A stretch of DNA of 64,000 bases from an uncultured Actinomycetes bacterium (lineage in GTDB: Bacteria > Actinomycetota > Thermoleophilia > RBG-16-64-13): contig CAVZIK010000006.1 in assembly GCA_963775295.1 (NCBI GenBank), positions 762,218 to 826,217 on the forward strand. Direction: 5' to 3'. Shown here one piece after another: positions 1,902 to 49,120 of the stretch. The notes beneath the pieces are model-generated. The model was not told where the DNA came from. It saw nothing but the letters and a program-made list of their open reading frames with translations, and searched no databases. The position numbers were made by a program, and so were the translations under genes. Numbering within the stretch: the first letter of the stretch is position 1; every line of letters starts with the position of its first letter.

Positions 1902-3325
1902 GGTAGTGTCCCCGGACGTGGTGTAACAGGAAGCGGCTGATCATGCCGGTTTCTGCGAAAAGGAAAGCCATCGAGTGTTCTCGTAGGTATTGGTGACAAA
2001 GCCGTACCTATGAAGGAGGACACTACGATGGCCGATTCCATTGTCACCCCCGAAGAACTCCTCGGCAAGCTTCTTGCCGGCGGGGAAGTTGATCTGCTCC
2101 GTGAAGCTGCCCTTGCCATGCTTCGAGAGCTGATGGAGATCGACGTGCGGGGAAAGACCGGCGCCGCTCTTGGTGAACGCAGCCCCGATCGTCTGTGCTT
2201 GCGCAACGGATACCGGGAGCGGCGTCTTGATACCCGCGTGGGAACGCTCGAACTCCCCATCCCCAAGCTCCGAGAAGGCAGCTACTTCCCCAGCTTCCTT
2301 GAACCGCGCAGAAGAAGCGAGGAGGCGCTCTTTGCCGTCATTGCCGAGGCCTATGTGAAGGGCGTCTCCACCCGCAAGGTCGAAGAGCTTGCCCATGCTC
2401 TTGGCATCGATGGCATCTCGAAAAGCGAGGTCTCCCGCATCTGCGCCCGCCTGGACGCGCAGGTCGAAGCCTTTCGCGGCCGGCCGCTTGTTGGGCGCTA
2501 CCCGTATCTCTTCCTCGACGCCACCTACGAGAAGGTGAGAGACGAGACCGGCAGAGTGGTCTCCATGGCGCTCGTGGTGGCCTACGCGGTCTCCGAGACC
2601 GGCGAGAGGGAGGTACTCGGGCTTGAGGTGTGCAAGAGCGAGGATTACGCGTTCTGGAAGGGATTTCTCGCCGGTCTTGTCTCCCGGGGCCTTGCTGGAG
2701 TGCTTCTCGTTATCTCCGATGCGCACAAGGGTCTGAGAAAGGCTATCGATGAGGTCTTTCTGGGAGCGGGCTGGCAGAGATGCCGGGTGCACTTTCTGCG
2801 CAATCTGCTCTCCCTTGTGCCCAAGGACGGCCAGGGCATGGTCCTTGCCGCGGTGAGGCTCGTCTTCCAGCAACCCGATAAGGCCCGGGCCAGAGAGGAA
2901 CTGAGGGCTCTTGCCGGCCGCCTGCAGGAACGCCTGCCCCGGGTGACCGCGCTTCTTCTGGAGGCCGAGGAAGAGATCCTTGCCCACATGGACTTCCCCT
3001 CTGAACATTGGCGCCAGATCTCCTCCACCAATCCCCTGGAGCGCCTCAACAAAGAGATCAACCGGCGTACGCGGGTGGTCGGCCTCTTCCCGAATGAGGG
3101 AAGCCTCGTCCGACTGATCGGCGCTGTCCTTTGCGAACAGAACGACGAGTGGGCGGTCTGTCGCAAGTACATGAGCCGCCACTCCCTGGCTCGCATCTAC
3201 CAACAAACCACCCCGGAGATCGAAGGAGAGATCACCCACGCCGTTGCCATTCCCATCCACTGAAGGCTAAGCTTGAAGACCTACGAGAACACGATGGCTC
3301 TTACACCACATCGTGGGACGCTACC
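1902..3325 (+). mobile_element. IS256-family insertion sequence (1424 bp) with imperfect 25-bp terminal inverted repeats and a 9-bp target-site duplication
   Basis: IRL GGTAGTGTCCCCGGACGTGGTGTAA (1902-1926) versus the reverse complement of IRR GGTAGCGTCCCACGATGTGGTGTAA (3301-3325), 21/25 identical. Direct repeat TGCTAGTTG at 1893-1901 and 3326-3334. Confidence 0.85.
2028..3263 (+). CDS. IS256-family (Mutator-type) transposase
   Basis: 411-aa ORF with typical IS256 transposase sequence (…LPIPKLREGSYFPSFLEPRRRSE…WQRCRVHFLRN…). RBS GAAGGAGG lies 7 nt upstream of ATG 2028; the track ORF begins at 2010. Confidence 0.9.
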   Translation: MADSIVTPEELLGKLLAGGEVDLLREAALAMLRELMEIDVRGKTGAALGERSPDRLCLRNGYRERRLDTRVGTLELPIPKLREGSYFPSFLEPRRRSEEALFAVIAEAYVKGVSTRKVEELAHALGIDGISKSEVSRICARLDAQVEAFRGRPLVGRYPYLFLDATYEKVRDETGRVVSMALVVAYAVSETGEREVLGLEVCKSEDYAFWKGFLAGLVSRGLAGVLLVISDAHKGLRKAIDEVFLGAGWQRCRVHFLRNLLSLVPKDGQGMVLAAVRLVFQQPDKARAREELRALAGRLQERLPRVTALLLEAEEEILAHMDFPSEHWRQISSTNPLERLNKEINRRTRVVGLFPNEGSLVRLIGAVLCEQNDEWAVCRKYMSRHSLARIYQQTTPEIEGEITHAVAIPIH

Positions 3326-3674: not shown

Positions 3675-4739
3675 ATGACCGAGGCACTTCCTGCGATCCA
3701 GGGGAAATGGTGGAGAGCGGAAAGCTACGAACTGAGTGACGGATACATCCAGCCGGTTCCGGGTTCATCCATCCATGAATACGACCCCATGGAGACCTAC
3801 TGGCAGTCAACCCCGGAGAGATCTCCAAAGGGACAGAAAGTGAATGCTCCTTATATGGAGCTGTTTGACCTCAGCAACTCATGTCGGTGGGGACTGGGAC
3901 CGAGCGGCCACGTGCTCACGAAGGAGAGCGAGGAGTTGCTGCTGGGATGGGTGAACAAATACGGACTTCTCGGCATCCTGCCTCATCAAACCATCGAGAT
4001 ACTGGGTCAGTACACGACCAAGGATAAGAACAAGAAGTCGACTTCAACCCAGACGGAACTCTTTTGGCTCCGAGACACTGAAGATCCCGCTCGACCCAGT
4101 CCCGATGTTGGCCGGCTCGGCTACGGACAGCCCGACTCTCTTGAAGCCCTCGTCCTAGTCCAGGATCTACATACGGCAACCGTCAAGACCACTTCCTGGG
4201 AGTCGGTTGCCGCTCCCTACTTCATCCGGCCGCTAGAGCAACTCAATCACGCACTTCGGTACCCTTTTCCTGGCGAGCCCGGTTTCTGGGGTGTCTACCG
4301 TGAGCCAGTCGAATCGTTCCTTCAGGCCGCCGCTCTTCTCTATGCTGCTTTCAAGGAGCTAGGTGTGATGCAGCAACCTGAAGACCCGGACACCGATCTA
4401 CCGCTCGCTGAGCAAGGTATTCACGAGTGGAGCGGGCCAGCGTCCTTGAACCACTTTCTGTCGGCAGTCCGGCCTAGTCTTGTTCCCCCGAAGGATACCG
4501 GCAAGTATCAGGGATACTGGCGGTCAGCTTCGCTTCTCGGGACTCTTGCCTTCCAGATCTACTGGGACCTGACCTACGGCCGTAACTACAGGATTTGTGT
4601 GTGCCCGTACTGCTCCAAGGCTTTCTCATCACGTTCGCTTCGAGCCGAGTACTGTTCGAACTCCTGCCGACTGAAGGCGCATCGAGGCCGACAGAATGAA
4701 GGTGTGAAGGAGAAGAAGAAGAGGAAGGCCAAGGGCTGA
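3675..4739 (+). CDS. hypothetical protein with C-terminal Cys-rich zinc-ribbon (CVCPYC…CSNSC) and a basic tail
   Basis: ORF track (3531 frame); ATG 3675 is preceded by GGAGAGG; divergent from the xis-like gene across an AT-richer 135-bp region. Confidence 0.55.
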   Translation: MTEALPAIQGKWWRAESYELSDGYIQPVPGSSIHEYDPMETYWQSTPERSPKGQKVNAPYMELFDLSNSCRWGLGPSGHVLTKESEELLLGWVNKYGLLGILPHQTIEILGQYTTKDKNKKSTSTQTELFWLRDTEDPARPSPDVGRLGYGQPDSLEALVLVQDLHTATVKTTSWESVAAPYFIRPLEQLNHALRYPFPGEPGFWGVYREPVESFLQAAALLYAAFKELGVMQQPEDPDTDLPLAEQGIHEWSGPASLNHFLSAVRPSLVPPKDTGKYQGYWRSASLLGTLAFQIYWDLTYGRNYRICVCPYCSKAFSSRSLRAEYCSNSCRLKAHRGRQNEGVKEKKKRKAKG

Positions 4740-4797
4740 GGCGAGGCCGGTCCGGGGTGGCGGCAAATATCGATAGTAGATTTGAGTAATTACCCCA

Positions 4798-4872
4798 GGG
4801 GTCCCCTCCCCCCTCCCCGTCTCGGCAGTCAACTCTACGGCGCAACCCTAGGGGAAGGGGGGGAGGGGGGTC
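4798..4872 (+). terminator. GC-rich hairpin (G4TC4TC6TC4 … G4AAG7AG6TC) with a ~30-nt loop, probable transcription terminator after the 3675-4739 CDS
   Basis: Left arm 4798-4818 and right arm 4851-4872 are near-perfect reverse complements. Confidence 0.45.
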
Positions 4873-5136
4873 TTATGTCGCGCCCAACGACGGAATGCAG
4901 CTTTCCCGCGGCGAAGGAGAAAGGCATGACGCTACTCTCCCCAGACTAGACTCCGGCCAGTGAAAGCCTGACCTGCGCGGCAACGTTGAAACGTCCTGCT
5001 TCGCCCAAAGGCTGTTTTCGATTCTAAGGGTACTTGCTGTTTCAGGATTGACGCGGTTAGCAGGAGCTTTGGCTCTATCAAGTGACGTAACTCAAGGGTA
5101 CTTGACGTACATCCCTCGCGAGGTCCAGGCCCGCTG

Positions 5137-9909: not shown

Positions 9910-11298
9910 CTAGTAGGAATAGCTGAGCAGAATCTCGCCCTCTGGATCAAGCACCTTCACGGTGTCGCCGTTGTTGTTCCAGATCGCCGCTCCGGTGGCT
10001 CCCCAGTAGAGGTCGGTCTGGGTGTTCGTCCCCTCGCCCGTGTGCAGCTTGAAGACCTGCCCCTTCTGGAAGATGCGGTCGGGAAAGTCGTAGCGATGAC
10101 CAGTAGCGTCTTCGATGGCGTAGCCAACCAAGCTGCCCGAAACCAGCGCCCTGAACGTGACGTACTCTTCGTTCAGGTTGAAGTTGTCGTTGCCGGGGGC
10201 GTCGTAGTTGACCGAGACGATCTCAAGCGGGCATGTCCCGGTGGCTCCCCACATCCCGGCACTTTGCTGCTCGGCTAGGGCCTGGTCGTTCTGGAAGCTC
10301 TCCGTGTACTTGATGTTCGGGGGCACCGTGTAGAGGGTGGCAAGACCGACAAGAAGCATCGTTTCGTTAGCCATCTCCCAGACATCACCGTCCGTGAACC
10401 AAACGTAGGCCAGGGTGCGGCCATACTGATCGGTGTGGGTCACGCCATACTCCAGCCGTACCGTCTTGCCCCCGACGAGGCCCGTCAACTCGGCGGTGGC
10501 TTCTGCGGCGAACGGCTCACCCGTCTCCGGTGTATCTATCCCGATGAGGCGCACGGTGGTGTCAGCCCCCGCTACATCCACGTGGATGGTGTCACCATCG
10601 ACCACCCGGGTAACCGCGCCCGTGACGAGGGGCACTAGATAGTCGGTCAGGTTCCAGAGTATCTGGGCGCACTCTCCCCGAGTGGCGTATTGGGTGGCAT
10701 CCCAGTAGGCAAGCGGCCCCTGTAGTCCCTCAAGCAGACTGTTGAACTCGGCCTTGCGGATGTTCTCGCCATGGGTGGGGTCGGCATATGAAAAGAGGCC
10801 GACGAATCCCTCGGGTGGGTCCTCCAGTCTTGACCCTGCGGCCCGCACCGCCATGGTGATGACCTGTTGACGTGTGATCTTGTTGGCCGGGCGAAACGTG
10901 CCATCAGGATACCCGGTCGTAAGACCCCTTGAAGCGGCAAGCGCCACGTAGTGGAAGGGGTAGAGGTCGCCGGGGATATGTTCCACGTCGGCAAAAGAGC
11001 AGGTGTCATATTCGGTTGGGGTCAAGCCCATGACCAGCACCAACATCTTGGCGAACTGCTGGCGAAGGACCGGACTATCGGGCTTGAAGCTGCCGTCAAG
11101 GTAGCCGTCGATGACACCCCGCGAGGACAGGTCGCTGATGGCTGTGACATAGGGGTTGGCCCCGCCCACGTCGGTGAAGGCCAATGCCGCGCCCAGGGGC
11201 AAGAGCACGAACAGCGCCGCGCAGGCAACGCCGAGGGTTAGGCGGCGTTTGAAGGTTCCCACGATTGTTACCAGTGGGGCGGGTTGCAGACGCTGCAC
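9910..11298 (-). CDS. secreted SLH-domain protein fused to thermonuclease (SNase) and a lamin-tail domain (LTD)
   Basis: Signal peptide; two SLH repeats (FTDVGGANPYVTAISDL…, FADVEHIPGDLYPFHYVALAAS…); SNase motif VTRVVDGDTIHV…RLIGIDTPE; C-terminal LTD-like CPLEIVSVNYDAPGNDNFNLNEEYVTF. Confidence 0.85.
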   Translation of the reverse strand: MQRLQPAPLVTIVGTFKRRLTLGVACAALFVLLPLGAALAFTDVGGANPYVTAISDLSSRGVIDGYLDGSFKPDSPVLRQQFAKMLVLVMGLTPTEYDTCSFADVEHIPGDLYPFHYVALAASRGLTTGYPDGTFRPANKITRQQVITMAVRAAGSRLEDPPEGFVGLFSYADPTHGENIRKAEFNSLLEGLQGPLAYWDATQYATRGECAQILWNLTDYLVPLVTGAVTRVVDGDTIHVDVAGADTTVRLIGIDTPETGEPFAAEATAELTGLVGGKTVRLEYGVTHTDQYGRTLAYVWFTDGDVWEMANETMLLVGLATLYTVPPNIKYTESFQNDQALAEQQSAGMWGATGTCPLEIVSVNYDAPGNDNFNLNEEYVTFRALVSGSLVGYAIEDATGHRYDFPDRIFQKGQVFKLHTGEGTNTQTDLYWGATGAAIWNNNGDTVKVLDPEGEILLSYSY

Positions 11299-12122
11299 GG
11301 CTCCAAGCCCATGGCCTTAGCCTCGGCCAGAGTCACGGGGATTTTGCTGCTGGATAGGTAGCGGCACCCATCACGGTGGTACTTCGTGCCCGATGCAGTT
11401 CTGAAAAGCGCGACGCCGTAGGCAGTGGTTGTTGTTGTGCTGGGTCGGGTGGTTGTCGTTGTCACATGGGCCGTGGTGGATGTTGTGGAGGGTGCGCCCC
11501 CACCTTTGATGATCAGCAGGTTGTAGAGGATTTGGGCGCATTCGCCCCGTGTCGCGTTCTGAGTGGCGTCCGAGAACTGAACCCCGGCAAGTAGTCCGTT
11601 GTACTCAGCCTTGCGGATGTTGGGGCCGTGCGTGGCATCAGTGTAGGAGAACGCACCCGCCCAGCCCTCGGGCGGCGTCTCTAGGTCTGCTCCACCTGCC
11701 CTTACCGCCATGGTTATAACTTGCTGCCGGGTGATGGGGTTGGCCGGGCCGAACGTGCCGTCCTTGTATCCTGTGGTCAGCCCGGTGGAAGCGGCCACAG
11801 CCACGTAGTGGAAGGGGTATAAGTCGCCCGCCTTGTGCTCCACATCGGGGAAGGAGCACATGTCACTCTCGGTTGGTGTTATGCCCACGGTCAGCACTAT
11901 CATCTTGGCGAACTGCTGGCGCTTGACCAGATCGGCAGGGCCGAAGTTGCCGTTCCCGTAGCCGCCGATGATGCCACGGTTGGCTAAGTCCTCTATGGCG
12001 GTCACGTAGGGATGGTCTGCGGGAACGTCGGAGAAGAGACCGGAAGCCAATGCCGGGACGACTACGAGCAACATCGCGGCCAAGCCAATCAGGAGTCCTA
12101 CGAGCCAACGCCTCAAACCCAT
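11268..12122 (-). CDS. SLH-domain cell-wall protein, paralog of the N-terminal half of 9910-11298, with poly-Thr linker and C-terminal Cys motif (GTKYHRDGCRYL…PCSVCNP)
   Basis: Signal peptide plus SLH repeats about 70% identical to the neighbouring gene; overlaps the next gene by 31 nt. Confidence 0.8.
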   Translation of the reverse strand: MGLRRWLVGLLIGLAAMLLVVVPALASGLFSDVPADHPYVTAIEDLANRGIIGGYGNGNFGPADLVKRQQFAKMIVLTVGITPTESDMCSFPDVEHKAGDLYPFHYVAVAASTGLTTGYKDGTFGPANPITRQQVITMAVRAGGADLETPPEGWAGAFSYTDATHGPNIRKAEYNGLLAGVQFSDATQNATRGECAQILYNLLIIKGGGAPSTTSTTAHVTTTTTRPSTTTTTAYGVALFRTASGTKYHRDGCRYLSSSKIPVTLAEAKAMGLEPCSVCNPPHW

Positions 12123-12315
12123 CTTGCACCCCTCACTCTATCCCCGACACCGGTCCTAACACTGATCGTACTCCTCGGGTTTGTTGGTCGCTACTCTCGC
12201 GCCAAGGCGCACCCGTTTGGGACAAAGAGGTGAGGATGGGTTTTCACGTCAGCCCGGCGGACGAAGGATCGAGACCGGATGTCATTGGCGCGCCTGATCA
12301 CCCCCTCGCTTCGAC

Positions 12316-12364
12316 TTGCACCTCCAGGCGCACCGCAACCGAATGACACGTCACGATACAGGGT
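12316..12364 (+). promoter_or_regulatory. copy A of a recurring ~55-nt motif (…GCACCgcaACCGAATGACACGTCACGATACAGGGT), directly abutting the tandem repeat
   Basis: Aligns with copies at 14476, 16455, 16705 and 49071. Confidence 0.4.
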
Positions 12365-12675
12365 GATTGGCCGCAACTTTGCCTCGATTGTGCCTAGGTC
12401 AAACTCGGAATTCAACTCAGTCTCGCCTAGGGTTCCCCCTAGGTTCAAAGCCGAATTGAACTCATGTTCGCCTAGGATTGGCCGCAACTTTGCCTCGATT
12501 GTGCCTAGGTTAAACTCGGAATTCAACTCAGTCTCGCCTAGGATTCCCCCTAGGTTCAAAGCCGAATTGAACTCATGTTCGCCTAGGATTGGCCGCAACT
12601 TTGCCTCGATTGTGCCTAGGTCAAAAGCCGAAATCAATTCAAACGAGCCTAGGCTTGACCAACGACTCTAGGCTG
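12365..12675 (+). repeat. tandem repeat, 111-bp unit x about 2.8, each unit built of ~38-bp sub-repeats bounded by CCTAGG palindromes
   Basis: Units start at 12365, 12476 and 12587 (GATTGGCCGCAACTTTGCCTCGATTGTGCCTAGG…) and are nearly identical; there are 12 CCTAGG sites in about 310 bp; the third unit degenerates after 12625. Confidence 0.85.
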
Positions 12676-12709
12676 GTTATCAGGCCAATTGCTCAGGGAC
12701 AGACTCGCA

Positions 12710-14350
12710 CTACGAAACAGAAGCAGCAGTCGTGTCCGTTCCCGGATGCCAGCGTGCGCTCCACGTGCGGCCAGCAACGTGGATAGAACCCTCACGCTTG
12801 AGTTCAGCCAGTAGGCTCTGGATTTGACCACGGGAGAGCGAAGGCAGGACCTCTTGGAGCTCGCCAAGACTCGCGCCCCGTCGCTTGTTGTCGGTTATGT
12901 GCTTTAGCAGCAGAGCCTTGTTGGTTTCTCTGTCCAAGCCACGTCGGCGCGTATACGTCCCGCCGCGACCGAGGAACTGATGAAACTTCCGTCCCAGAAT
13001 GTACTTCGTTCCCTTACCGCGCCCAATTCGCTCGATGATTCCTAGATTGCATAGTCGAGGCAACCGATCTTGAAACTCGAGCGGGACCGGCTTCTCCTGG
13101 TAGACAAGAGACAGGACCAGAAGATCAATGGTACTGAAAGTGGACAGGGTCTGGGTCCCGACCTCCTCCAGGAAACGTAGAAAGCGGGCATCTTGGACCT
13201 CTCCGCTTATGGTCAGAAAGACCTGAAAGTCATCAGTACCGGAATAGTCCGGCAAAGGCTTGCTTTCCCTGAGGCTCTCCTCGTACATTCGATTAGCGCC
13301 TTGCCCGGATCGTTCCACTAGGCCGCACTTGGCCAGAACCTCTGCAATGCGCCGGTTCCGTGGTGACTGTTTCCACAGTATGTTCTTTGCATTGACTCCG
13401 GGAGGGAACCCGCCCGGGCTAACAACTTCGAGCTTGTTCGGCGACTGGCGAATGAAGATCGAATCCGGCAGCCGGTAGTCTCTGTGGCACACGGCGTTCA
13501 GAATGCCTTCTCGGACGACGCTCTCGTTGAATGTCGGGATTTCCCGCATGAAGAGACCTTCTTGGTACTGGTGGACCTCATTCCGCAGATTGACGGTCTC
13601 CCATAGATCTGACTGAAATGTAAAGAAACCCTGTCGGTATTCCTTACGCTGTTGATACGCCAAGGACTCTTCCCTGGAGCGATACTCAAAGACGATTTCC
13701 GCTTGTGCGAGGTGCCTGCCCAACGCCTGCTCGGTTCCTAGCAGAACCAACGCCGCGTAGGTCACCTTCCCGTTCACGAGCAAATCAAGGTCGCTGAGAA
13801 TCTGTTCATCGCTCAAGCCGGCGATACTATCGCTACCCGACTTGCGTCGCCAAGCCTCGCGCAGAAGCGAGATTGCCTCCAGGTCAAGGTCGGCTAGCGT
13901 GGCCGCGGGAGCAACTTGCGCGGAAAAGTCCGGCTGCGCCTCGTCAAGTATCCTCTTGATTTGGTCGGGAGTCATAGGAACGAGGGAATCGCCCGCGCGC
14001 ATCCAGAATGTGCCGCGATAGCCGATGGGGACGCCTACAGGGCGGCCTTGGACTGTGATTACGAGAACAGGACCCTGTGGGTGAACTACCCTTTCCACCT
14101 CCACCTTCAGGTGAAGGCGTTCCGTGATGCCGGCCGCTGTTCTCGCTGGCTCTTCGAACGCTGTCGTTCCGACCACCTGGCGGGGCTTGGTGTCGGTGAC
14201 TCCTAGGACTAGCTTGCCCCCGCCCTCGTTTGCCAGAGCGACGCAGTAATGAACGAGCTTCTCAAAGTCGAAATGGTTCCTCGCCTCTTTGAAATCGAGA
14301 TGCTCATCCTCGTTGTCGTCGAGAAGCCTTTCTAACTCCTGCAGTTCCAA
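12710..14350 (-). CDS. COG2865-type protein: AlbA_2 (Schlafen-like 'divergent AAA') DNA-binding domain + HATPase_c_4 + C-terminal wHTH
   Basis: N-terminus EDEHLDFKEARNHFDFEKLVHYCVALANEGGGKLVLGVTD (AlbA_2 signature); central NAVCHRDY (HATPase_c_4 signature). Confidence 0.8.
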   Translation of the reverse strand: MELQELERLLDDNEDEHLDFKEARNHFDFEKLVHYCVALANEGGGKLVLGVTDTKPRQVVGTTAFEEPARTAAGITERLHLKVEVERVVHPQGPVLVITVQGRPVGVPIGYRGTFWMRAGDSLVPMTPDQIKRILDEAQPDFSAQVAPAATLADLDLEAISLLREAWRRKSGSDSIAGLSDEQILSDLDLLVNGKVTYAALVLLGTEQALGRHLAQAEIVFEYRSREESLAYQQRKEYRQGFFTFQSDLWETVNLRNEVHQYQEGLFMREIPTFNESVVREGILNAVCHRDYRLPDSIFIRQSPNKLEVVSPGGFPPGVNAKNILWKQSPRNRRIAEVLAKCGLVERSGQGANRMYEESLRESKPLPDYSGTDDFQVFLTISGEVQDARFLRFLEEVGTQTLSTFSTIDLLVLSLVYQEKPVPLEFQDRLPRLCNLGIIERIGRGKGTKYILGRKFHQFLGRGGTYTRRRGLDRETNKALLLKHITDNKRRGASLGELQEVLPSLSRGQIQSLLAELKREGSIHVAGRTWSARWHPGTDTTAASVS

Positions 14351-14475
14351 CGGCGCCTCCGGGGTGACATCGCGAGTATCTAGCCGAGTCTACTACTCCG
14401 GTCTGCCCAATCAAACACGGAGCCGGAGCCCTCCGATGTGCCATACCTGCTCTGGGCCTGCGTCGACCCTTATCC

Positions 14476-14540
14476 TTGCACCCCTACCCGCACCCCTACC
14501 CAAATGACACGTCACGATACAGGGTAGACAAAATTGATGG
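14476..14540 (+). promoter_or_regulatory. copy B of the recurring ~55-nt motif (TTGCACCCCTACCCGCACCCCTACCCAAATGACACGTCACGATACAGGGTAGACAAAATTGATGG)
   Basis: Contains the internal direct repeat GCACCCCTACC twice; sits about 15 nt upstream of the putative ECF promoter. Confidence 0.45.
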
Positions 14541-14550
14541 GGACAGTAAA

Positions 14551-14576
14551 GGTAACAGCTGCCGCCATACGTCTAG
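14551..14576 (+). promoter_or_regulatory. putative ECF-type promoter GGTAAC-N13-CGTCTA, 40 nt upstream of the sigma gene start
   Basis: Same architecture, GGTAAT-N13-CGTCTG, at 16780-16804 before the paralogous sigma gene. Confidence 0.4.
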
Positions 14577-14616
14577 GATATAGAAGGGCAACCTCGGGGA
14601 AGGGGCAACAAGAAAG

Positions 14617-15156
14617 TTGACGAGAGCTGAGAGTTTGCCAGAACCCAGACGAGTAGCAGATATCAGTCGGGCTCAGAGCGGGAGCTTCGAAGCCTTTGTG
14701 AAACAGCACTCAACTCCTCTCGTTCAGACCCTGACGTTCGTTGCCCTTGATCGCCAACTGGCAGAGGACGCGGCTCAGGAGGCGTTCGTCCGGCTGTACT
14801 TGCGCTGGGACCAGGTCGAGAAGTTGCGGGACCCGGTGGCCTGGCTCTACCAGGTTGGGATCAACCAATGTAAGGACTACAGGCGCAAGCTTGGTCGGAT
14901 AGCCCGTCTCGTGGAACGTCTCGGTGCTGAAGCTCGCGAGCCCTCTGACGGCGAAACCTGGCTTCCTCAGCGTGAGTTCGTCGATGTTCTCAAGGCGCTT
15001 CCTCGTCGTCAGCGGACCGCGGTCGCCCTCTTCTACCTAGGCGACCTATCGGCGGTCGATGTTGCGTCGGTCATGCGCATTACTGAAGGGGCGGTGCACA
15101 GTCATCTTCACAAAGCCAGAGAGGCTCTGAAGGATGTGCTGGAGGTGAAGATATGA
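14617..15156 (+). CDS. ECF (extracytoplasmic function) sigma-70 family factor, copy 1
   Basis: TTG start; region 2 (…EDAAQEAFVRLYLRWDQV…WLYQVGINQCKDYRRK) and region 4 (…RTAVALFYLGDLSAVDVASVMRITEGAVHSHLHKAREAL). Confidence 0.9.
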   Translation: MTRAESLPEPRRVADISRAQSGSFEAFVKQHSTPLVQTLTFVALDRQLAEDAAQEAFVRLYLRWDQVEKLRDPVAWLYQVGINQCKDYRRKLGRIARLVERLGAEAREPSDGETWLPQREFVDVLKALPRRQRTAVALFYLGDLSAVDVASVMRITEGAVHSHLHKAREALKDVLEVKI

Positions 15157-16412
15157 GACCGGAAGAAAGAGACCAAGAGATACGCGAACTCTGTCGGAAG
15201 AACGCCCCCCATGTCGACCCGGCTGCCTTCTCCCGCAAGGTGAAGGCACGGACAGATCCAAGAAGAAGAGCGCGACGGAGAATGGGGCGAAAGGTTGGCG
15301 TCGCATTTGGGGTGGTGCTCCTGCTGGCCGGTGTCGGGATCGGCTCTCTGGAACTCGTCAACCATCTGACGCACGGGCAACGAGTAACCCTGATTCTGAA
15401 CGACGATTCCCCAAACGGAACAACAACGACTTCCCACCAACCAGTTCCGGGTGGGTTCTCCAGAGACAATACCTTCGGGTTCGACGTGCGCCAGCCCTTC
15501 ATCGATCATGACGCGACGCAGGCGCTTGGCGACCCCGCCTACAAGATCGTCACCACCTGGGTCGCCATCGGGAACCGCCAGAGTGTCCCGCTATCCTTCA
15601 AGCTCAGCGACCTGACCCTCATCGATGCCTATGACCAACTCGCCTACCGGGGCGTGCGGCCGGAGCAGTACAACTACACCGAGACCGTCACTCCCATCTG
15701 GACCCCCGCGCTCAAAGAGGGGACCATAGCTCCCGGCGCTATTGAAGGCGGGTACGTGTCCTGGAAGGTGCCTTGGTATGTCTGGCCGCAGGAAGTGTTC
15801 TACGCGTTCAAGGGCAAGGGTGGTGGAGGCGGTGGCCAGGGGTGGATGACGCCCATCTTCCCCGACCTCAACGCGGGCAATCGCTTCTATCTCTCAATCG
15901 GGAAGCTCCTGTATCGGGGTGTGGTCGATGTGCCCAAGGATGAGGACTTCAGGCCAGAAGCGGCGATCACCGTCGCCGACTTTGCCAAGATGGTTGTCAT
16001 TGCCGCGGCCCCGTATAACAGAGCCACATTCTCCTCTCCCGCCGGTTATATCGAGGAGGCGGCAAGGACAGGCTTTGCCACCTGGGGGTCAAAGACTGCC
16101 TCGTCCACACTGACACGACTGGAGGTCGCGCTGGCGGTAGCCGTACTGGCCAAAGAAACGTTGACTGCTCCTCCGGCAGGCTACAAGTTTCCGCTCACCG
16201 ATGTCCCGCAGAGCGCCGAGAGTGACCTTGCCTTGCTCACCTACAATGGCGTCGTCGCCGGGACCACCGCGATCAGCTTCAGTCCGGCGGACGCATGCTC
16301 ACGCGGTCAGGCCTGCAGGATGTTGGCCTTGGTACTCGATCCCAGATTCCGCGAGGAGGAGTCAAGGGCAACGACCTCTCTGCCGTCCGAGGCGACGACT
16401 ACCACTCGCTAG
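15153..16412 (+). CDS. anti-sigma factor, single TM, extracytoplasmic domain with poly-Gly stretch
   Basis: ATGA overlap with the sigma stop; N-terminus EERDQEIRELCRKNAPHVDPAAFSRKV then a TM helix VAFGVVLLLAGVGIGSL. Confidence 0.7.
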   Translation: MRPEERDQEIRELCRKNAPHVDPAAFSRKVKARTDPRRRARRRMGRKVGVAFGVVLLLAGVGIGSLELVNHLTHGQRVTLILNDDSPNGTTTTSHQPVPGGFSRDNTFGFDVRQPFIDHDATQALGDPAYKIVTTWVAIGNRQSVPLSFKLSDLTLIDAYDQLAYRGVRPEQYNYTETVTPIWTPALKEGTIAPGAIEGGYVSWKVPWYVWPQEVFYAFKGKGGGGGGQGWMTPIFPDLNAGNRFYLSIGKLLYRGVVDVPKDEDFRPEAAITVADFAKMVVIAAAPYNRATFSSPAGYIEEAARTGFATWGSKTASSTLTRLEVALAVAVLAKETLTAPPAGYKFPLTDVPQSAESDLALLTYNGVVAGTTAISFSPADACSRGQACRMLALVLDPRFREEESRATTSLPSEATTTTR

Positions 16413-16454
16413 GCGTTCGCAAGTCCCCGCCCTTGCCGAACTGCGACTCCAGTC

Positions 16455-16514
16455 GCACCCCTACGCGCACCCCTACCCAAATGACACCTGACGATACAGG
16501 GTGGACAGAATGGA
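16455..16514 (+). promoter_or_regulatory. copy C of the recurring ~55-nt motif
   Basis: GCACCCCTACGCGCACCCCTACCCAAATGACACCTGACGATACAGGGTGGACAGAATGGA. Confidence 0.4.
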
Positions 16515-16704
16515 CTGGCGGCTCAGGACTTTCAGAACGCAGTAGTACGCAGAAGTACCCCATGAACAGTCCGAGGGCGGTTTCCTAAACCTTGTGTCGC
16601 GCGTTCGATTCGCGCCGAGGGCACCTCGAAGATTCAGACTTATCCCTGCAAATGAGCCCTTTCCGGTTCCTCCGCTTGCGGCCTCAGACTGCCCAAAAGG
16701 CCGT

Positions 16705-16766
16705 TTGCACCCCTACGCGCACCCCTACCGGAATGATAAACGGTGATACACAATGGACAAAATGGA
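16705..16766 (+). promoter_or_regulatory. copy D of the recurring ~55-nt motif
   Basis: TTGCACCCCTACGCGCACCCCTACCGGAATGATAAACGGTGATACACAATGGACAAAATGGA; followed by CAGTAAAGGTAAT as in copy B. Confidence 0.45.
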
Positions 16767-16779
16767 CGACGGCAGTAAA

Positions 16780-16804
16780 GGTAATAGGCGTCGTCGCACG
16801 TCTG
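16780..16804 (+). promoter_or_regulatory. putative ECF-type promoter GGTAAT-N13-CGTCTG, 40 nt upstream of the sigma copy 2 start
   Basis: Parallel to 14551-14576. Confidence 0.4.
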
Positions 16805-16843
16805 AGAAGTAGGAAGGCGACGCAGGGAGGAGCAACGAGGGAC

Positions 16844-17383
16844 TTGACGATAGCCAAGGAGTCGCGAGACTCGACGCGGATAGCGGACAGCAATCGAGCG
16901 CAAAGTCTTAGTTTTGACGCCTTTGTCAGACGGTATTCGGTCCCCCTGATTCAGACACTCACCTTCGTTGCCCTGGACCGCCAACTAGCGGAAGATGCGG
17001 CGCAGGAGGCGTTCGTCCGACTGTACCTGCGTTGGGACCAGGTGGAGAAGCTGGAGGACCCAGTGGCCTGGGTCTATCGGGTCGGAATCAACCAATGCAA
17101 GGACTATCGGCGCAAGCTCACTCGGATAGCGCGGCTCGTCGAGCGTCTCGGCGCTGATGCTCACGAACCCTCTGACAGCGAGCCCTGGCTTCCTCGTCGT
17201 GAGTTCATCGATGCCCTCAAGATCCTTCCTCGCCGTCAGCGGACCGCGGTCGCCCTCTTCTACCTGGGCGACCTATCCGCGGCCGATGTGGCCTCGGTTA
17301 TGCTCATTACTGAAGGGGCGGTGCACAGTCACCTTCATAAGGCACGAGAGGTTCTGAAAGATGTGCTGGAGGTGAAGTCGTGA
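16844..17383 (+). CDS. ECF sigma factor, copy 2 (close paralog of 14617-15156)
   Basis: TTG start chosen by alignment with copy 1; the region 2 and region 4 blocks are nearly identical. The track ORF starts at 16592, but that stretch holds the regulatory motifs. Confidence 0.85.
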   Translation: MTIAKESRDSTRIADSNRAQSLSFDAFVRRYSVPLIQTLTFVALDRQLAEDAAQEAFVRLYLRWDQVEKLEDPVAWVYRVGINQCKDYRRKLTRIARLVERLGADAHEPSDSEPWLPRREFIDALKILPRRQRTAVALFYLGDLSAADVASVMLITEGAVHSHLHKAREVLKDVLEVKS

Positions 17384-26491: not shown

Positions 26492-26983
26492 TTGAGCCAC
26501 GAGGTAGAGTGGCCAAGCGCATTCGACGCTATCGTCCACGCACACACCGCCCGACTGGTGAAGAGCTTGAGCCTCATCACCCTTGACCGGGGACTGGCCG
26601 AGGATGCAGCTCAAGAGGCCTTCCTCCAACTGCATCTTCACTGGCATGATCCAGAAGTGAAGGACCCCGTTGCCTGGCTCTACCGGGTCGGCATCAATCG
26701 TTGCAAGGACTATCGCCGGGCCATGGGCAGAGCCACTCGTCTGAGGCAGCGTTTAGCCGGGAGCTTCGAGGAGTTCACGCCCCCAGCCTGGACGCCGGAC
26801 CCCGACCTTATGAGCATTCTTCGCCCCTTACCGAAGCGCCAACGCACCGCAGCCTCTCTCTTCTACCTGGCCGGTTTCTCCACCTCTGAGATCGCACGAG
26901 CCATGGACATCTCTGAGGGGGCCGTCGGCAGTCATCTCCACAAGGCCCGAGAAGCACTGCGCAAGATCTTGGAGGAACAGTGA
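26492..26983 (+). CDS. ECF sigma factor, copy 3
   Basis: TTG start 8 nt after AAGAGGAG; region 2 AEDAAQEAFLQLHLHW…WLYRVGINRCKDYRR; region 4 QRTAASLFYLAGFSTSEIARAMDISEGAVGSHLHKAREAL. Confidence 0.85.
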   Translation: MSHEVEWPSAFDAIVHAHTARLVKSLSLITLDRGLAEDAAQEAFLQLHLHWHDPEVKDPVAWLYRVGINRCKDYRRAMGRATRLRQRLAGSFEEFTPPAWTPDPDLMSILRPLPKRQRTAASLFYLAGFSTSEIARAMDISEGAVGSHLHKAREALRKILEEQ

Positions 26984-29381: not shown

Positions 29382-30231
29382 CCCTATTGGATCTTGGCGT
29401 CGTGCGCAGAGCACATGCTTGTTGAGGTCAACCCGCCTGATACTTGGGCGGGCTGACCTCGCAAAACTGAGGCTTTCAAAAACTCCAGATTACTCAGGTT
29501 GTCGGCGAATACCATTGAATCAACGTATGGATCTTGGGTTCCATCAAGGTTCCTCTGCTATGCGGTGGACTTGCAGGAGCACGGCTGGGTGGGTATGTCG
29601 CCTCACTAGACCAGATGGGATCGATGCACTCCCGCCGAGTGACCTATCTAATCGATCAGCCGTCAGGCTCCGGTGGCGTTTCGTCCGAAAAGGTTGACAC
29701 GGTCCGAATAACAGCAACCGATGCAAACGGTAATGAGGGCTGTCATACATTGAAACCATGATTGCTCATTTGCAGGCAACGCTGAAGCGATAGGACATGC
29801 CTTCGGGTCAATTCGAACCGACACAAGGATTAGGAATTCCCGAGATTAACGTCCGCTGTGTGCCACAGAGGCCCGTGTGCTCGTATAACGTGCCCGCCGC
29901 GCATCGGGATGTATCGCCCCCATTCGCGGGTTTGGCTGTCAGTTTGGCTGTCAACCTGACCGTTCGTTACTCAAAACCCTGTTCGTCTGAGCAATGGCGC
30001 GGCTTGTCCCAACGCAGGGCGTCCTTTGCAGCGAGGCGAGGGACTGGGGGCTTCCGGAAACTCCGCGGAATCGCTCAACCATGCTCTTGGCCGGCGCTTG
30101 TGTTCGATAACCTAAAAGTTGACCACTTGGAGGCCGTTCGTTCATCGAAAAGTTGACCACCTTCAATACAAGTCCTGTACCGTCTTCCCCTCTTGGGAAC
30201 TGGCGGGACAGGGGGAAGGCATGTGCTGAAG

Positions 30232-31683
30232 ATGGTCGACGTGGAGTTCATCAAGAAGAAGCGCGAAAACGAGGGCTGGCCGATCCGCAAGATCGCCCGG
30301 CAGCTCGAAGTGTCCAGGCAGACAGTGCGAAAGGTGCTGGCCTCCCCGGCCGAGCCGTTTCGTTATCAACAGAGAGTTTCCCGTCCCCGTCCGGTCATGG
30401 GACCCTATCTCCCCGTGATCGAACGCTGGCTCACCGAGGATGAGACCGCTCCTCGCAAACAGCGTCACACGGCCAAGCGCGTCTATGACCGTCTGGTCGC
30501 GGAATACGACTTCCCCGGTTCAGAGGTGACCGTGCGCCGGGCGGTGCGCAGCCTTCGGGGTCGGCGCACCCAGGTCTTCGTGCCCCTGGAGGCGGTGCCG
30601 GGCAAAGTGGCTCAAGCTGACTTCGGCCAAGCTCACGTGATGATCGCCGGGGCGGTGCAGAAGGTCTTCGTCTTCTGTCTGCGGGCCAAACACTCCAAGG
30701 TGTCATTTGCCGTGGCTTATCCCACCGAGAAGCTGGAAGCCTTCCTGGATGGTCACGTCAGGGGTCTTGAGTTCTTCGGCGGGATCTTCCGTGAGATTTG
30801 GTATGACAACCCCAAGACCGCCGTCAGCAAGATCCTTTCCGGCCCGTATCGCATCGAGCACGAGCACTTCAGTCGCCTGCGCGCCCACTACCTCTTTGAC
30901 AGCTCCTTCTGCACTCCGGGAGAGGCCCACGAGAAAGGCTCGGTGGAGAACCTGGTGGGATACGTGCGCCGGAATGCCCTCGTGCCGGCGTCGAAGCCCT
31001 TTGCTTCGCTGGAGGCGCTGAACCTCCACCTACGCGCCTTCTGCGAGCGGGAACGGGTTCGGCATGCCGGCGGGTGGGCTCTGGAGGAGACGGCACTGAA
31101 ACCGCTTCCTCTCCACGCTTTCCGGGCCGCCACCTCGCGGCCGGTTTCGGTCTCCAAGACCGCTCTTGTGCGCATCGACCACAATCGCTACTCGGTGCCG
31201 GCCGTTCACGCCGGCCGCCTGCTTCGGGCCGAGGTCTACGTGGACAAAGTGGAGATCTACGTCGCCGACGCCCTCATCGCTGCCCACCCCCGCAGCTACC
31301 AGCGCGGGGAGACCTTCCTTGAGCTCTCCCACTATCTCCCCGTCTTTGCCCGCAAGCCCCGGGCGGCCGGATGCTGCGCCGCTCTTTCCCAGGCCGATCC
31401 GGTGTTCATTCGCACCCGGGACCTGCTGCTGCGTGAACCGGGCGGATACCGGGTCTTCGCCGAGATCCTCATGTTGGGGATGCGATTCGATCTGGATGTT
31501 CTGGCCCAAGCCCTCGAAGAGTGCCTGAGCTCAGGGAGACTATCGGTCGAGGGTGTCCACCAGCGCTGCCTTAACCTGATGCATGTGCCCCCGGGCCCAG
31601 TGATGGTGCCTGAGCTGTTGGCTCTGCGCCTTCCCCGGCCGGATCTTAGCCGCTATGACGCCCTTACGGCGGTGGCCCGATGA
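30232..31683 (+). CDS. istA: IS21 transposase IstA
   Basis: HTH N-terminus plus DDE core (…WYDNPKTAV…); alternative start GTG 30223 (track 30193); the stop overlaps the istB start. Confidence 0.9.
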   Translation: MVDVEFIKKKRENEGWPIRKIARQLEVSRQTVRKVLASPAEPFRYQQRVSRPRPVMGPYLPVIERWLTEDETAPRKQRHTAKRVYDRLVAEYDFPGSEVTVRRAVRSLRGRRTQVFVPLEAVPGKVAQADFGQAHVMIAGAVQKVFVFCLRAKHSKVSFAVAYPTEKLEAFLDGHVRGLEFFGGIFREIWYDNPKTAVSKILSGPYRIEHEHFSRLRAHYLFDSSFCTPGEAHEKGSVENLVGYVRRNALVPASKPFASLEALNLHLRAFCERERVRHAGGWALEETALKPLPLHAFRAATSRPVSVSKTALVRIDHNRYSVPAVHAGRLLRAEVYVDKVEIYVADALIAAHPRSYQRGETFLELSHYLPVFARKPRAAGCCAALSQADPVFIRTRDLLLREPGGYRVFAEILMLGMRFDLDVLAQALEECLSSGRLSVEGVHQRCLNLMHVPPGPVMVPELLALRLPRPDLSRYDALTAVAR

Positions 31684-34869: not shown

Positions 34870-35778
34870 CTACCCAGCGCCGAGTAGTGCGTCCATCCGC
34901 GCGGCCGTCTCACCCCGTTGCTCAGGAAGAACATGGCTGTAGACATTCAAGGTCGTCCCGATCTCTGAGTGCCCGAGAAACTCCTGCACCAGTTTGGGGT
35001 CGAGCCCCTGGGCTAGGAGCAGTGTCGCGCAGGTATGCCGGAGGTCATGGAAGCGCATGATGCGAAGCCCAGCGTCCTTCAGGATCTGCTTGAACCGATG
35101 GCTAAGGACCGATCCGTTGAGGGGTTGCCCCTTGTCGGTCGTGAAGACCAGTCCACCCCACTCGTTCCACTCCGGCCCGGCTGCAAGTCTCTCTGCTGCT
35201 TGACGGGCACGGTGAGCCTTGAGTGCTGTTACAGCTATCTTGGGGATCATGATGGTGCGCCGACTCTGCTTGGTCTTAGGTTCGGCGAGCGCATACTCTC
35301 CGTCCAGCCGGTTGAGAGCATGATGCACTGAGAGGGTGGCATGCTCCAGGTCGAGGTCCTGCCAGCGAAGACCAAGGATCTCCCCTTTGCGCAGCCCAGA
35401 GGATAGGGCGAGGATGAAGAGGGCCTCCAGACGATCGCCAGCTGCCGTCTCCAAGAACGTTCTTGCCTCCTCGGGAGCAAGCGGAGTCACCTGCTTCTGG
35501 GCTCCCCGGGGTGGACGAACGAGCTGAGCGGCGTTGCGGGCCACAGAGCCCATGCGTAGACCCTCGTTCAAGGCCGCCCGCGAGGTGGCATGGATGATCT
35601 GGACCGACTGGCCCGAGAGGCCTTCCTTCTGCTTCTTGTTGAGCAGCGCCTGGACCTCCCGGGTGTGAGCTTCGCCAGCTTGATCTTGCCCAGGTGCGGT
35701 TTCAGATGGAGCCGGACTGCCTGCTCGCTTCTCATATAGGTAGAAGGCCGGACATATGATGAGGTAGAGGCGTAGCAT
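34870..35778 (-). pseudogene. tyrosine recombinase (phage-integrase family), 5'-truncated: catalytic and core-binding domains are present, the N-terminal arm-binding domain is absent, and the first ~17 codons are read from the regulon motif sequence
   Basis: Catalytic motifs …RRTIMIP…, HDLRHTCATLLLAQG, …LGHSEIGTTLNVYSH; the N-terminus MLRLYLIICPAFYL is the complement of CCGGACATATGATGAGGTAGAGGCG. Confidence 0.7.
35746..35770 (+). promoter_or_regulatory. regulon motif copy 7, downstream half only (GGCCGGACATATGATGAGGTAGAGG); the -35-like half is missing at the island junction
   Basis: Matches copies 3, 8 and 9 from CCGGACAT onward; the upstream GGTAATGCTTTCGG part is absent. Confidence 0.4.
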
Positions 35779-48785: not shown

Positions 48786-49070
48786 GTCGATAAGGCTATT
48801 GGGAGGGCCATCGTCATCGTCGGCCTGAAAGACATGCGATTTGCCCCTCGCATTCCGGAGTCACATCATCCATGAGGCGGGATGTCGGGATGCAGCCCGT
48901 GTACTACACTCACATTCGGCGCATTTACCGTCATCAGGTTGCGTCGCGGCCCAAGGCAATGCCTCGTCACGTCCAGCGCGCAGTCCCCGGTCTTGGCAGC
49001 CAAGCGTCGGCTGACCCGTACTTTTCGGGCAACTATCGTATCCCTGGCTATGGGGTGAAAGCCGACATAA

Positions 49071-49120
49071 GTACGCCCCTACCGAAATGCCAAACGGTGA
49101 TATAGGGTGGACAAAATTGC
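49071..49120 (+). promoter_or_regulatory. copy E of the recurring ~55-nt motif (GTACGCCCCTACCGAAATGCCAAACGGTGATATAGGGTGGACAAAATTGC), upstream of the CaCA gene
   Basis: Aligns best with copy D. Confidence 0.4.

Follow-up and report, generated by a model that had tools for sequence, protein, structure and literature searches.

A CCTAGG-rich tandem array next to a COG2865/Schlafen gene as a probable expanded form of a phased tract that recurs behind homologous genes

We analysed a 64-kb window (the whole 64,000-nt stretch of DNA) of a contig from an uncultured Actinomycetes bacterium, in which a CCTAGG-studded tandem array lies next to a COG2865/Schlafen gene. This gene, on the minus strand (12710-14350), codes for a 546-residue protein with a Schlafen/AlbA_2 nuclease-type N-terminal domain, a HATPase_c_4 (GHKL-like) domain and two predicted C-terminal winged-helix units. 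Downstream of the array on the same strand is an SLH-domain gene (11268-12122). The original prediction had described a non-coding gap of about 590 bp between these two genes, in keeping with the 587 bp that we measured between the start of the SLH gene at 12122 and the stop codon of the COG2865 gene (12710-12712). The array covers 12365-12653 and is read here on the minus strand; its left bound is a truncated copy of a motif found elsewhere in the window ('copy A'), and its right bound is the last CCTAGG. On the gene strand, it starts 57 nt past the stop codon, with no terminator-like site in between. As developed below, this array is very probably an expanded member of a tract linked to the COG2865/Schlafen gene.

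Tandem Repeats Finder confirmed the predicted 111-bp unit, with 2.4 copies, 98% matches and a score of 508 over 12365-12625. An ungapped repeat-family search detected three copies in register, at 12365-12475 (100%), 12476-12586 (98%) and 12587-12697 (68%). The first two differ at only two positions, 12400 (C/T) and 12432 (G/A), and the copy nearest the gene is partial (12587-12653). We thus estimate the copy number at about 2.4-2.6 (2.6 for the whole array) rather than the 2.8 initially proposed, a figure that rests on one assembly. Instead of the two sub-repeats of ~38 bp described before, the unit is built from three modules of 27 nt, each followed by a CCTAGG, and a linker of 6 nt that is likewise followed by CCTAGG (33+33+12+33 bp). 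The modules are A (ATTGGCCGCAACTTTGCCTCGATTGTG), B (TYAAACTCGGAATTCAACTCAGTCTCG) and C (TTCAAAGCCGAATTGAACTCATGTTCG), the linker is RTTCCC, and copy 1 reads A1-B1-linker-C1. The third copy has retained an exact A module (12588-12614), and its B module is swapped for a divergent D module (12621-12647) flanked by CCTAGG.

Ten CCTAGG sites, rather than about 12, are found within 261 bp (at 12393, 12426, 12438, 12471, 12504, 12537, 12549, 12582, 12615 and 12648), with spacings of 33, 12, 33, 33, 33, 12, 33, 33 and 33 bp. Seven others occur in the remaining 63.7 kb, for an expectation of ~12 in the whole window, which indicates no marked avoidance. The GC content within the array drops no lower than ~0.50. 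We detected no further copy of module A or of modules B/C in the 64-kb window with up to three mismatches, and no other repeat family overlaps the array. The 56 nt that separate the stop codon from the first CCTAGG (12654-12709, minus strand) are not repeated and contain a lone GAGCAAT box (12688-12694) and one CTAGG. In line with the prediction that no plausible protein is encoded here, the minus-strand open reading frame that crosses the array (12191-12637, 148 residues), which we regard as spurious, has zero homologues among 5.8 billion proteins.

Our analyses added three features to the original prediction, namely a sub-periodicity of 11 bp, a palindrome made of modules B and C, and the attribution of the array to the COG2865 gene rather than to the gap in general. 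Read on the gene strand, the array is a succession of ~28 degenerate 11-mers (GGCnAAt...) without breaks, and each 111-bp unit holds ten of them, including a single 12-mer. The register on the minus strand is GGCACAATCGA GGCAAAGTTGC GGCCAATCCTA GGCGAACATGA GTTCAATTCGG CTTTGAACCTA GGGGGAATCCTA and onward. The strongest autocorrelation lags over the first 150 nt past the stop codon are 33, 11 and 44. Modules B and C resemble each other as direct repeats and are also mutually complementary; the succession CCTAGG-B-CCTAGG-linker-CCTAGG-C-CCTAGG makes up an imperfect 84-nt palindrome, present at 12393-12476 and 12504-12587 (minus strand).

The COG2865 protein matches PF04326 (E=4e-12) and PF13749 (E=1e-13) and no other Pfam family. 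Profile searches returned weak matches to SLFN8, SLFN14 and SLFN11, and a full-length match was obtained with the uncharacterized structure 3lmm. In the AlphaFold2 model, residues 388-452 and residues 474-536 are each folded into an H-H-H-beta-beta unit, with predicted local distance difference test values of roughly 60-90. Foldseek matches include the N-terminal domains of SLFN13 and SLFN5, tandem winged-helix proteins, regulators of the ArsR, HlyU and PadR types, and SelB. PADLOC gave weak matches only, to Schlafen-domain proteins associated with prokaryotic Argonautes (pAgo), and NCBIfam has no model for this protein. The sequence GTAGTAGACTC, which contains TAGACT, is found 36-46 nt upstream of the start codon (14386-14396, minus strand). 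It is also present 35-50 nt upstream of the start codons of the orthologues with 81% and 73% protein identity, and it is the sole 5' non-coding sequence common to these three closest loci. It thus looks like the gene's own promoter. When 11900-14800 was scanned for promoters and terminators, the gap yielded neither a sigma-70-like promoter nor a terminator.

A 2026 study reported that prokaryotic Schlafens (pSlfns) are antiphage tRNases, and that fusions with HisKinase or with HisKinase and helix-turn-helix (HTH) domains are their commonest architectures, with a trigger or control mechanism not established; pSlfn-HisKinase-HTH proteins make up 19.2% of 5,930 pSlfns (PMC13056530). Judging from its predicted domains, the protein of the window belongs to this class, with PF04326, a GHKL/HisKinase-like domain and an HTH. 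The features in common with the pSlfns of that study are a PF04326 domain in which acidic residues close to the N terminus are conserved, the HisKinase-HTH architecture, and a setting in defence and restriction-modification (R-M) islands (PMC13056530).

The protein family is highly conserved and spread over phyla, with 58-81% identity in Actinobacteria, Chloroflexi, Desulfobacter, Bryobacteraceae and others. We read by hand the 3' flanks of 19 independent homologous loci (24-81% protein identity), designated below by L numbers. Boxes in AT-rich loci were identified visually, because an automatic most-repeated-7-mer caller, usable in GC-rich loci, was swamped by A/T words. In about 16 of the 19 loci, the gene is followed by short boxes spaced 10-12 bp apart, the first of which lies 2-100 nt past the stop codon, often with an inverted copy after them. 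The recurring core of the boxes is NNG[C/T]AAT or CGCAA.

The closest homologues have AGCCAAT five times (L063, 81% identity) and GCAATCC seven times, at spacings of 22, 22, 33, 11, 11 and 11 bp (L065, 73%). At L079 (63%), three perfect GGCGCAATATC boxes begin 2 nt past the stop codon, with an inverted copy and two more boxes. L071, L077 and L078 carry ACGTAAT, ACATAAT or ACACAAT three times, L072 has ATTGCGT/ACGCAAT in a perfect 12-bp hairpin, L073 has pairs of ACGCAA, and L070 has two boxes only. On viral contigs, we found four AATTGCTTAT boxes plus an inverted TAAGCAAT at L067, and four ACTTGGTAC boxes at L068. The plasmid loci harbour GSCAAW seven times (L075), GATAG seven times (L076), CGCAAAC three times (L080), ...AACGCAAA twice (L081), and CCAAT twice plus TTGCGT (L083). 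The plasmid homologues retrieved by tblastn are all distant (<33% identity) and served as an outgroup. In L083, from the Runella plasmid pSP2_2, TAATCTCC occurs four times at 10-bp intervals (2296-2335), between the Schlafen-family gene and a divergent replication initiator gene. These repeats are probably the plasmid's own iterons, and repeats near such genes need not belong to them.

For the first ten loci, we scored periodicity as 6-mers recurring at lags of 10-12, 21-23 and 32-34 in the 150 nt past the stop codon. Seven of the ten rank in the top 3% of 2541 background windows taken from the same loci, and three are above every background window. The 5' flanks are mostly unenriched (2/10 at p<=0.016, versus 7/10 of the 3' flanks). 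The genetic environment is different at each locus examined and includes type I R-M operons, toxin-antitoxin or defence islands, plasmids and viral contigs. Several homologues are found within or next to type I R-M operons (L070, L071, L078, L079, L080, L081 and L076), mostly between an hsdS or FRG-domain gene and hsdR. In such hsdS/FRG-Schlafen-hsdR loci, the box tract is thus directly upstream of hsdR.

A blastn search with the array and its flanks showed that the DNA homology of the window with L063 and L065 is confined to the coding sequence and ends at its borders, the short upstream motif GTAGTAGACTC being the exception. Nevertheless, CTAGGCAA is present in all three 3' tracts, as CCTAGGCACAAT in the window, CCTAGGCAATCCCTAGGCAATT in L065 and CCCTAGGCAAGCC in L063, which defines a subclade box, CTAGGCAA(T). 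The window and L065 also have CCTAGGGG(G)AA in common. Thus, the CCTAGG palindromes are the conserved 5' part of the subclade box rather than a restriction-site phenomenon. Together, the homology limited to coding sequence and the persisting boxes suggest that the boxes are kept as the DNA around them is replaced. Within the family as a whole, the core of the box drifts between GCAAT, CCAAT, GTAAT and CGCAA.

This bears on the link to an R-M system targeting CCTAGG that was envisaged in the original prediction. A CCTAGG cluster serving such a system, as a decoy or as a regulated target, is in our opinion extremely improbable. It would agree with the density of CCTAGG sites in the array and with the frequent location of homologues inside type I R-M operons. 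However, no such link is needed, since CCTAGG is part of the CTAGGCAA(T) box in the tracts of both the 81% and the 73% orthologues. Furthermore, the tracts of distant homologues are devoid of CCTAGG, no R-M gene was found among the 27 window proteins scanned against Pfam, and CCTAGG is not markedly depleted in the rest of the window. In addition, type I R-M enzymes recognize bipartite sites, not CCTAGG.

The array might also be a neutral or selfish repeat unrelated to the gene, such as a satellite, a cluster of miniature inverted-repeat transposable elements (MITEs) or a relative of repetitive extragenic palindromic (REP) sequences and bacterial interspersed mosaic elements (BIMEs), or its copy number might be inflated by an assembly artefact. 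The 98% identity of the 111-bp blocks indicates a recent last duplication, which may be neutral, and the copy number comes from one genome. The only other assembly that carries the exact COG2865 gene is a 2.4-kb Logan contig, from run ERR11571143. It matches 12596-15036 at 100% and ends inside the array, as would be expected for a repeat that exceeds the assembler's k; the run may be the window's own sample, and this contig is thus perhaps not independent. We consider the array sequence itself unlikely to be an assembly artefact. As for a neutral repeat, the units are unique within the 64 kb, the box content is common to the 3' tracts of orthologues in unrelated contexts, and tracts follow about 16 of 19 homologues. 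Altogether, we give this explanation little credence.

Searches for similar arrays elsewhere also yielded no relatives among the hits that were checked. We scanned 185,579 species-representative genomes for the CCTAGG-N27-CCTAGG-N27-CCTAGG architecture and obtained 46 loci, with no related array according to a unit-pattern probe and to the one locus that was read (L002), which is an unrelated AT-rich sequence; the probe also missed a window-derived fragment (L001), making this a weak negative. The CCTAGG-N6-CCTAGG-N27-CCTAGG-N27-CCTAGG architecture gave four loci in the JGI metagenomes, and the three that were read are 11-12-bp microsatellites. A shorter version of the architecture had 11 matches in viral contigs, which are outside the set checked for related arrays.

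Known families of interspersed elements were also considered. The satellite-like MITE cluster of the original prediction was abandoned, as the 64 kb contain a single locus with such units, without terminal inverted repeats flanked by target duplications; the left end abuts a truncated host motif, and the right end fades into unique sequence. The enterobacterial REP/BIME elements are, like the array, imperfect alternating palindromes with short linkers, tandemly amplified 3' of a gene and between co-directional genes, where they would stabilize the upstream mRNA. The layout of the array is indeed of this type, with the 84-nt B/C palindromes separated by module A, 3' of the COG2865 gene. In contrast, REP sequences are dispersed in hundreds of copies and mobilized by RAYT transposases, whereas the array is unique in the 64-kb window (no dispersed copies at up to three mismatches) and its boxes are common to the tracts of orthologues.

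Among the options that the original prediction had listed, an array of regulator binding sites is the one favoured by the 11-bp-phased tracts behind the homologues and by the two predicted winged-helix domains. More specifically, we regard the chances that the boxes of the tract are DNA docking sites for the winged-helix domains of the protein itself as evenly balanced. The place of the array past the stop codon with no intervening terminator-like site, the 11-base register, the periodicity scores of the 3' flanks, the persistence of the boxes outside homologous DNA and the agreement of box type with protein clade also count in favour of this reading. In this scenario, a cis element made of short boxes one helical turn apart (10-12 bp) would travel with Schlafen-GHKL-winged-helix genes, just past their stop codons. 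The tract of the window has drifted into 33-bp modules of three boxes each, one of which keeps CCTAGG. It gained the inverted B/C pair before the 111-bp block was duplicated, probably via unequal recombination or slippage. The boxes would be bound by the two C-terminal winged-helix domains of the encoded protein, and several protein molecules might form a row along one face of the DNA, close to the gene that encodes them. Sites directly behind the stop codon would help the protein to load in cis while transcription and translation are coupled, and docking may hold, sequester or regulate a potentially toxic RNase.

Binding sites with a similar organization are known in plasmids. Rep proteins bind iterons phased at 22 bp, the parC site of plasmid R1 is composed of 11-bp repeats bound by ParR, and sopC of plasmid F has 43-bp repeats, each with an inverted repeat. 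Like them, the Schlafen tracts consist of clustered short direct repeats at integral helical turns, some of them inverted, beside a gene with predicted winged-helix domains. The window has the 11-mer register and the 33-bp CCTAGG spacing, and the homologues have spacings of 11, 22 and 33 bp. As for iterons, the sequence of the boxes varies between lineages and their layout is kept. Nevertheless, we found no Rep or Par gene near the array among the Pfam-scanned proteins, and the locus has no replication initiator, ParA/ParM partner or plasmid context, nor an AT-rich unwinding element, as judged from a GC content that falls only to ~0.50. Unlike iterons, the tracts are found past the stop codon whether the gene is on a chromosome, in an R-M operon, on a plasmid or on a viral contig, and the protein, a putative ligand of the tract, is a Schlafen-GHKL fusion linked to phage defence. 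In kind, the array would be a binding-site array beside the gene of its binding protein, here attached to a Schlafen defence gene, a function that is inferred.

Several observations weigh against such a docking role. No box tract matching that of the 3' side was found in the 5' flanks, and operators are not usually located behind the gene. Three of the 19 loci lack a clear tract close to the stop codon (L074, L082 and L069, the latter with a GTACCACC cluster only ~270 nt downstream), and L070 and L083 are weak. The type of box tracks the protein clade, with GCAAT-type boxes accompanying 'IER.GRGKGTKY' in winged helix 1 and GTAAT/ATAAT-type boxes accompanying 'IVR.GKG---KY'; this link speaks for docking, but it is confounded by phylogeny and by the GC content of the hosts. 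The evidence base consists of 19 hand-read loci, which are part of the family. The other observations of this sort concern RNA. The palindromes are far more stable as RNA of the gene strand, on which all six or seven wobble pairs are found. Folding z-scores are lower for the sense strand in eight of ten loci, and the first cluster of boxes has the sense orientation in most loci, as judged by eye. Lastly, winged helices can also bind RNA, and the Foldseek matches of the protein include SelB, whose tandem winged helices bind an RNA hairpin. The strand asymmetry and the sense bias suit a role at the RNA level at least as well.

The array might therefore be a structured 3' untranslated region (UTR) co-transcribed with the Schlafen gene, stabilizing the message against 3' exonucleases or terminating it like REP sequences, or serving as a ligand or decoy RNA that restrains the RNase in the manner of a type III antitoxin. 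As RNA of the gene strand, the palindrome at 12393-12476 would form a hairpin of 35 bp including six G.U pairs (-45.1 kcal/mol, z -7.3), and that at 12504-12587 a hairpin of 34 bp including seven G.U pairs (-37.8 kcal/mol, z -5.8), versus -29.9 and -27.3 kcal/mol, respectively, for the opposite strand. This asymmetry arises because the 6-7 G.U pairs of the minus strand correspond to A.C mismatches on the plus strand. The substitution at 12432 between the two copies changes a G-C to a G.U pair. Also in favour of an RNA element, no terminator separates the stop codon from the array, and the Schlafen domain has an RNase/RNA-binding fold according to the profile and Foldseek matches and to PMC13056530.

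However, strongly structured 3' flanks were found only for the window and L072 among the ten loci, the remaining sense-strand z-scores ranging from -0.8 to -1.7. The feature that the loci have in common is direct repetition at 10-12 nt, which is the helical turn of DNA and has no obvious meaning for RNA. The boxes are mainly antisense in some tracts (L067 and L072). No Rfam family was matched by the whole window at gathering thresholds, nor by 12000-17000 and L063 even at E<=1, and ARAGORN found no tRNA or transfer-messenger RNA. An intrinsic terminator was also discarded, as no GC-rich hairpin followed by a U tract is present in 12123-12709 on either strand; the hairpins of the array lead into module A, not into a run of T.

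Type III toxin-antitoxin systems (ToxIN, CptIN and TenpIN) are similar to the locus in that a tandem repeat adjoins a predicted RNase gene with a role in phage defence. The ToxI repeat, of 36 nt, is close in size to the 33-nt modules of the window, and the array RNA of the gene strand would be highly structured. By contrast with the identical repeats of 34-45 nt that precede such toxin genes, with a terminator in between, the array is downstream rather than upstream of the gene, its modules are non-identical, and it has no terminator-like site. The basic unit in most homologues is ~11 nt, and the processing of an array RNA is hypothetical. The nuclease is outside the ToxN/AbiQ family; the COG2865 protein matches PF04326 and PF13749 only, and was thus not retained as a ToxN, AbiQ, CptN or TenpN toxin. 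The array fits neither type III antitoxins nor REP elements, and overall we regard a 3'-UTR RNA, the main rival of the docking model, as a rather unlikely explanation.

The two levels need not be separated in a broader, more tentative proposal. The Schlafen-GHKL-winged-helix protein and a cognate phased box tract past the stop codon might form a two-part system, in which the tract, as DNA or as 3'-UTR RNA, would load, restrain or tune the nuclease. If so, the element would be conserved from Actinobacteria to Proteobacteria, plasmids and viral contigs, and the 111-bp array of the window would be its most elaborate example found here. Constructs without the 3' flank would then be incomplete. In PMC13056530, cloning of the pSlfn candidates included 100-150 bp of upstream sequence. 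Defence was obtained with two systems, which have DUF262 and Ig-like fusions, and no HisKinase fusion was shown to defend. Incomplete constructs could help explain that no defence was reported for HisKinase-class genes cloned with upstream sequence only. Term searches of the text of that study, which deals with proteins only, detected no 3' repeat tract or non-coding partner (PMC13056530), nor did full-text searches of PMC and bioRxiv retrieve any account of 3' repeat tracts behind COG2865/pSlfn genes. The phased tract would provide a concrete candidate target for the HTH domains of pSlfns. More generally, an orphan-looking tandem repeat can be derived by amplification from a small element of the adjacent gene, and inspecting the 3' flanks of homologues may be an inexpensive way of finding such elements.

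We also considered that the tract is a recombination or insertion scar, i.e. an attC-like or other att site that moves the Schlafen cassette, with the array as a by-product of repeated recombination. The left boundary is relevant here. As predicted, the array starts exactly where motif copy A (12319-12364, plus strand) ends: the 23-nt AATGACACGTCACGATACAGGGT at 12342-12364 is identical to 14503-14525, 25 of the 26 positions of 12339-12364 match 14500-14525, and the identity to the full copy stops at 12364/12365. Copy A belongs to a family of five members (GCACCCCTACNCGCACCCCTACC-AAATGACAC...GATACAGGGTGGACAAAATKGA). The full copies, all on the plus strand, are at 14478-14537, upstream of an extracytoplasmic-function (ECF) sigma gene (14617-15156), and at 16455-16514, 16707-16766 and 49061-49120. 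These four are followed, after 80-130 nt, by genes of the plus strand (two for ECF sigma factors and one for a Na/Ca exchanger) and have no Rfam match; the motif may be a promoter or 5'-leader element. Plus-strand transcription from copy A was judged unlikely because copy A lacks what comes after ATACAGGGT in the full copies, namely AGACAAAAT.

Copy A and the copy at 14478-14537 thus bracket the array and the gene (12365-14502, 2138 bp). At L063 (Actinobacteria metagenome-assembled genome, JAMDEO010000234.1), 143-bp direct repeats that are 81% identical (2407-2549 and 4736-4878) bracket the Schlafen gene and its tract; their sequence is unlike the window motif. These brackets hint that promoter, coding sequence and tract insert as a unit. 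This hint is weakened by the tandem motif copies at 16455 and 16707, which are not associated with an insertion and show that the bracket need not be a target duplication. No flanking repeats were found in L065. The changing gene neighbourhoods and the loss of DNA homology at the borders of the coding sequence are also consistent with a scar.

Regarding attC sites and gene cassettes, only module B fits the integron core consensus (ATTCAAC/GTTGAAT); module C, with ATTGAAC/GTTCAAT, breaks RYYYAAC/GTTRRRY, and the partner core site is absent. Direct repeats with 11-bp phasing are foreign to attC sites. No integron integrase or cassette array was found nearby, where the flanking genes code for SLH and ECF sigma proteins. 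The sole tyrosine recombinase gene that was found (34870-35778), identified as Pfam Phage_integrase only, is ~22 kb away. A recombination scar appears improbable on these grounds. As initially stated, the array is not a clustered regularly interspaced short palindromic repeats (CRISPR) locus either: it has no long constant repeat (of about 23-47 bp in CRISPR arrays), its only constant element being the 6-bp CCTAGG, and its 27-nt 'spacers' recur (three times for A, twice for B and twice for C). No Cas family was detected among the 27 window proteins scanned against Pfam.

Other features of the window are reported here for completeness. A 45-nt sequence resembling GGTAATGCTTTCGGCCCTGCCGGACATATGATG occurs in at least nine copies (19038, 21501, 22264, 23440, 24699, 26250, 42604, 45545 and 61093), with related sequences at 35747 and 48356. 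The copies that were compared with the list of open reading frames sit directly upstream of the starts of plus-strand frames. This sequence looks like a shared promoter or translation-start element, and is possibly the target of ECF sigma factors encoded in the window. Two tandem paralogous cassettes were identified, with 72-75% DNA identity (14598-14897 versus 16825-17124, and 14476-14592 versus 16705-16821). In each of them, an ECF sigma gene is followed by another gene, the product of which has a weak SLH match in the first cassette and no Pfam match in the second. A third related sigma gene is found at 26492-26983. Two genes downstream of the array, 9910-11298 (minus strand) codes for a secreted fusion of SLH, staphylococcal-nuclease and lamin-tail domains, i.e. 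a cell-wall-anchored nuclease. Lastly, genes at 2010-3263, 30193-31683 and 34870-35778 code for a Mutator/IS256-family transposase, a transposase with a Mu C-terminal domain and the tyrosine integrase mentioned above, respectively. The presence of these mobile-element genes suggests that this region is plastic.

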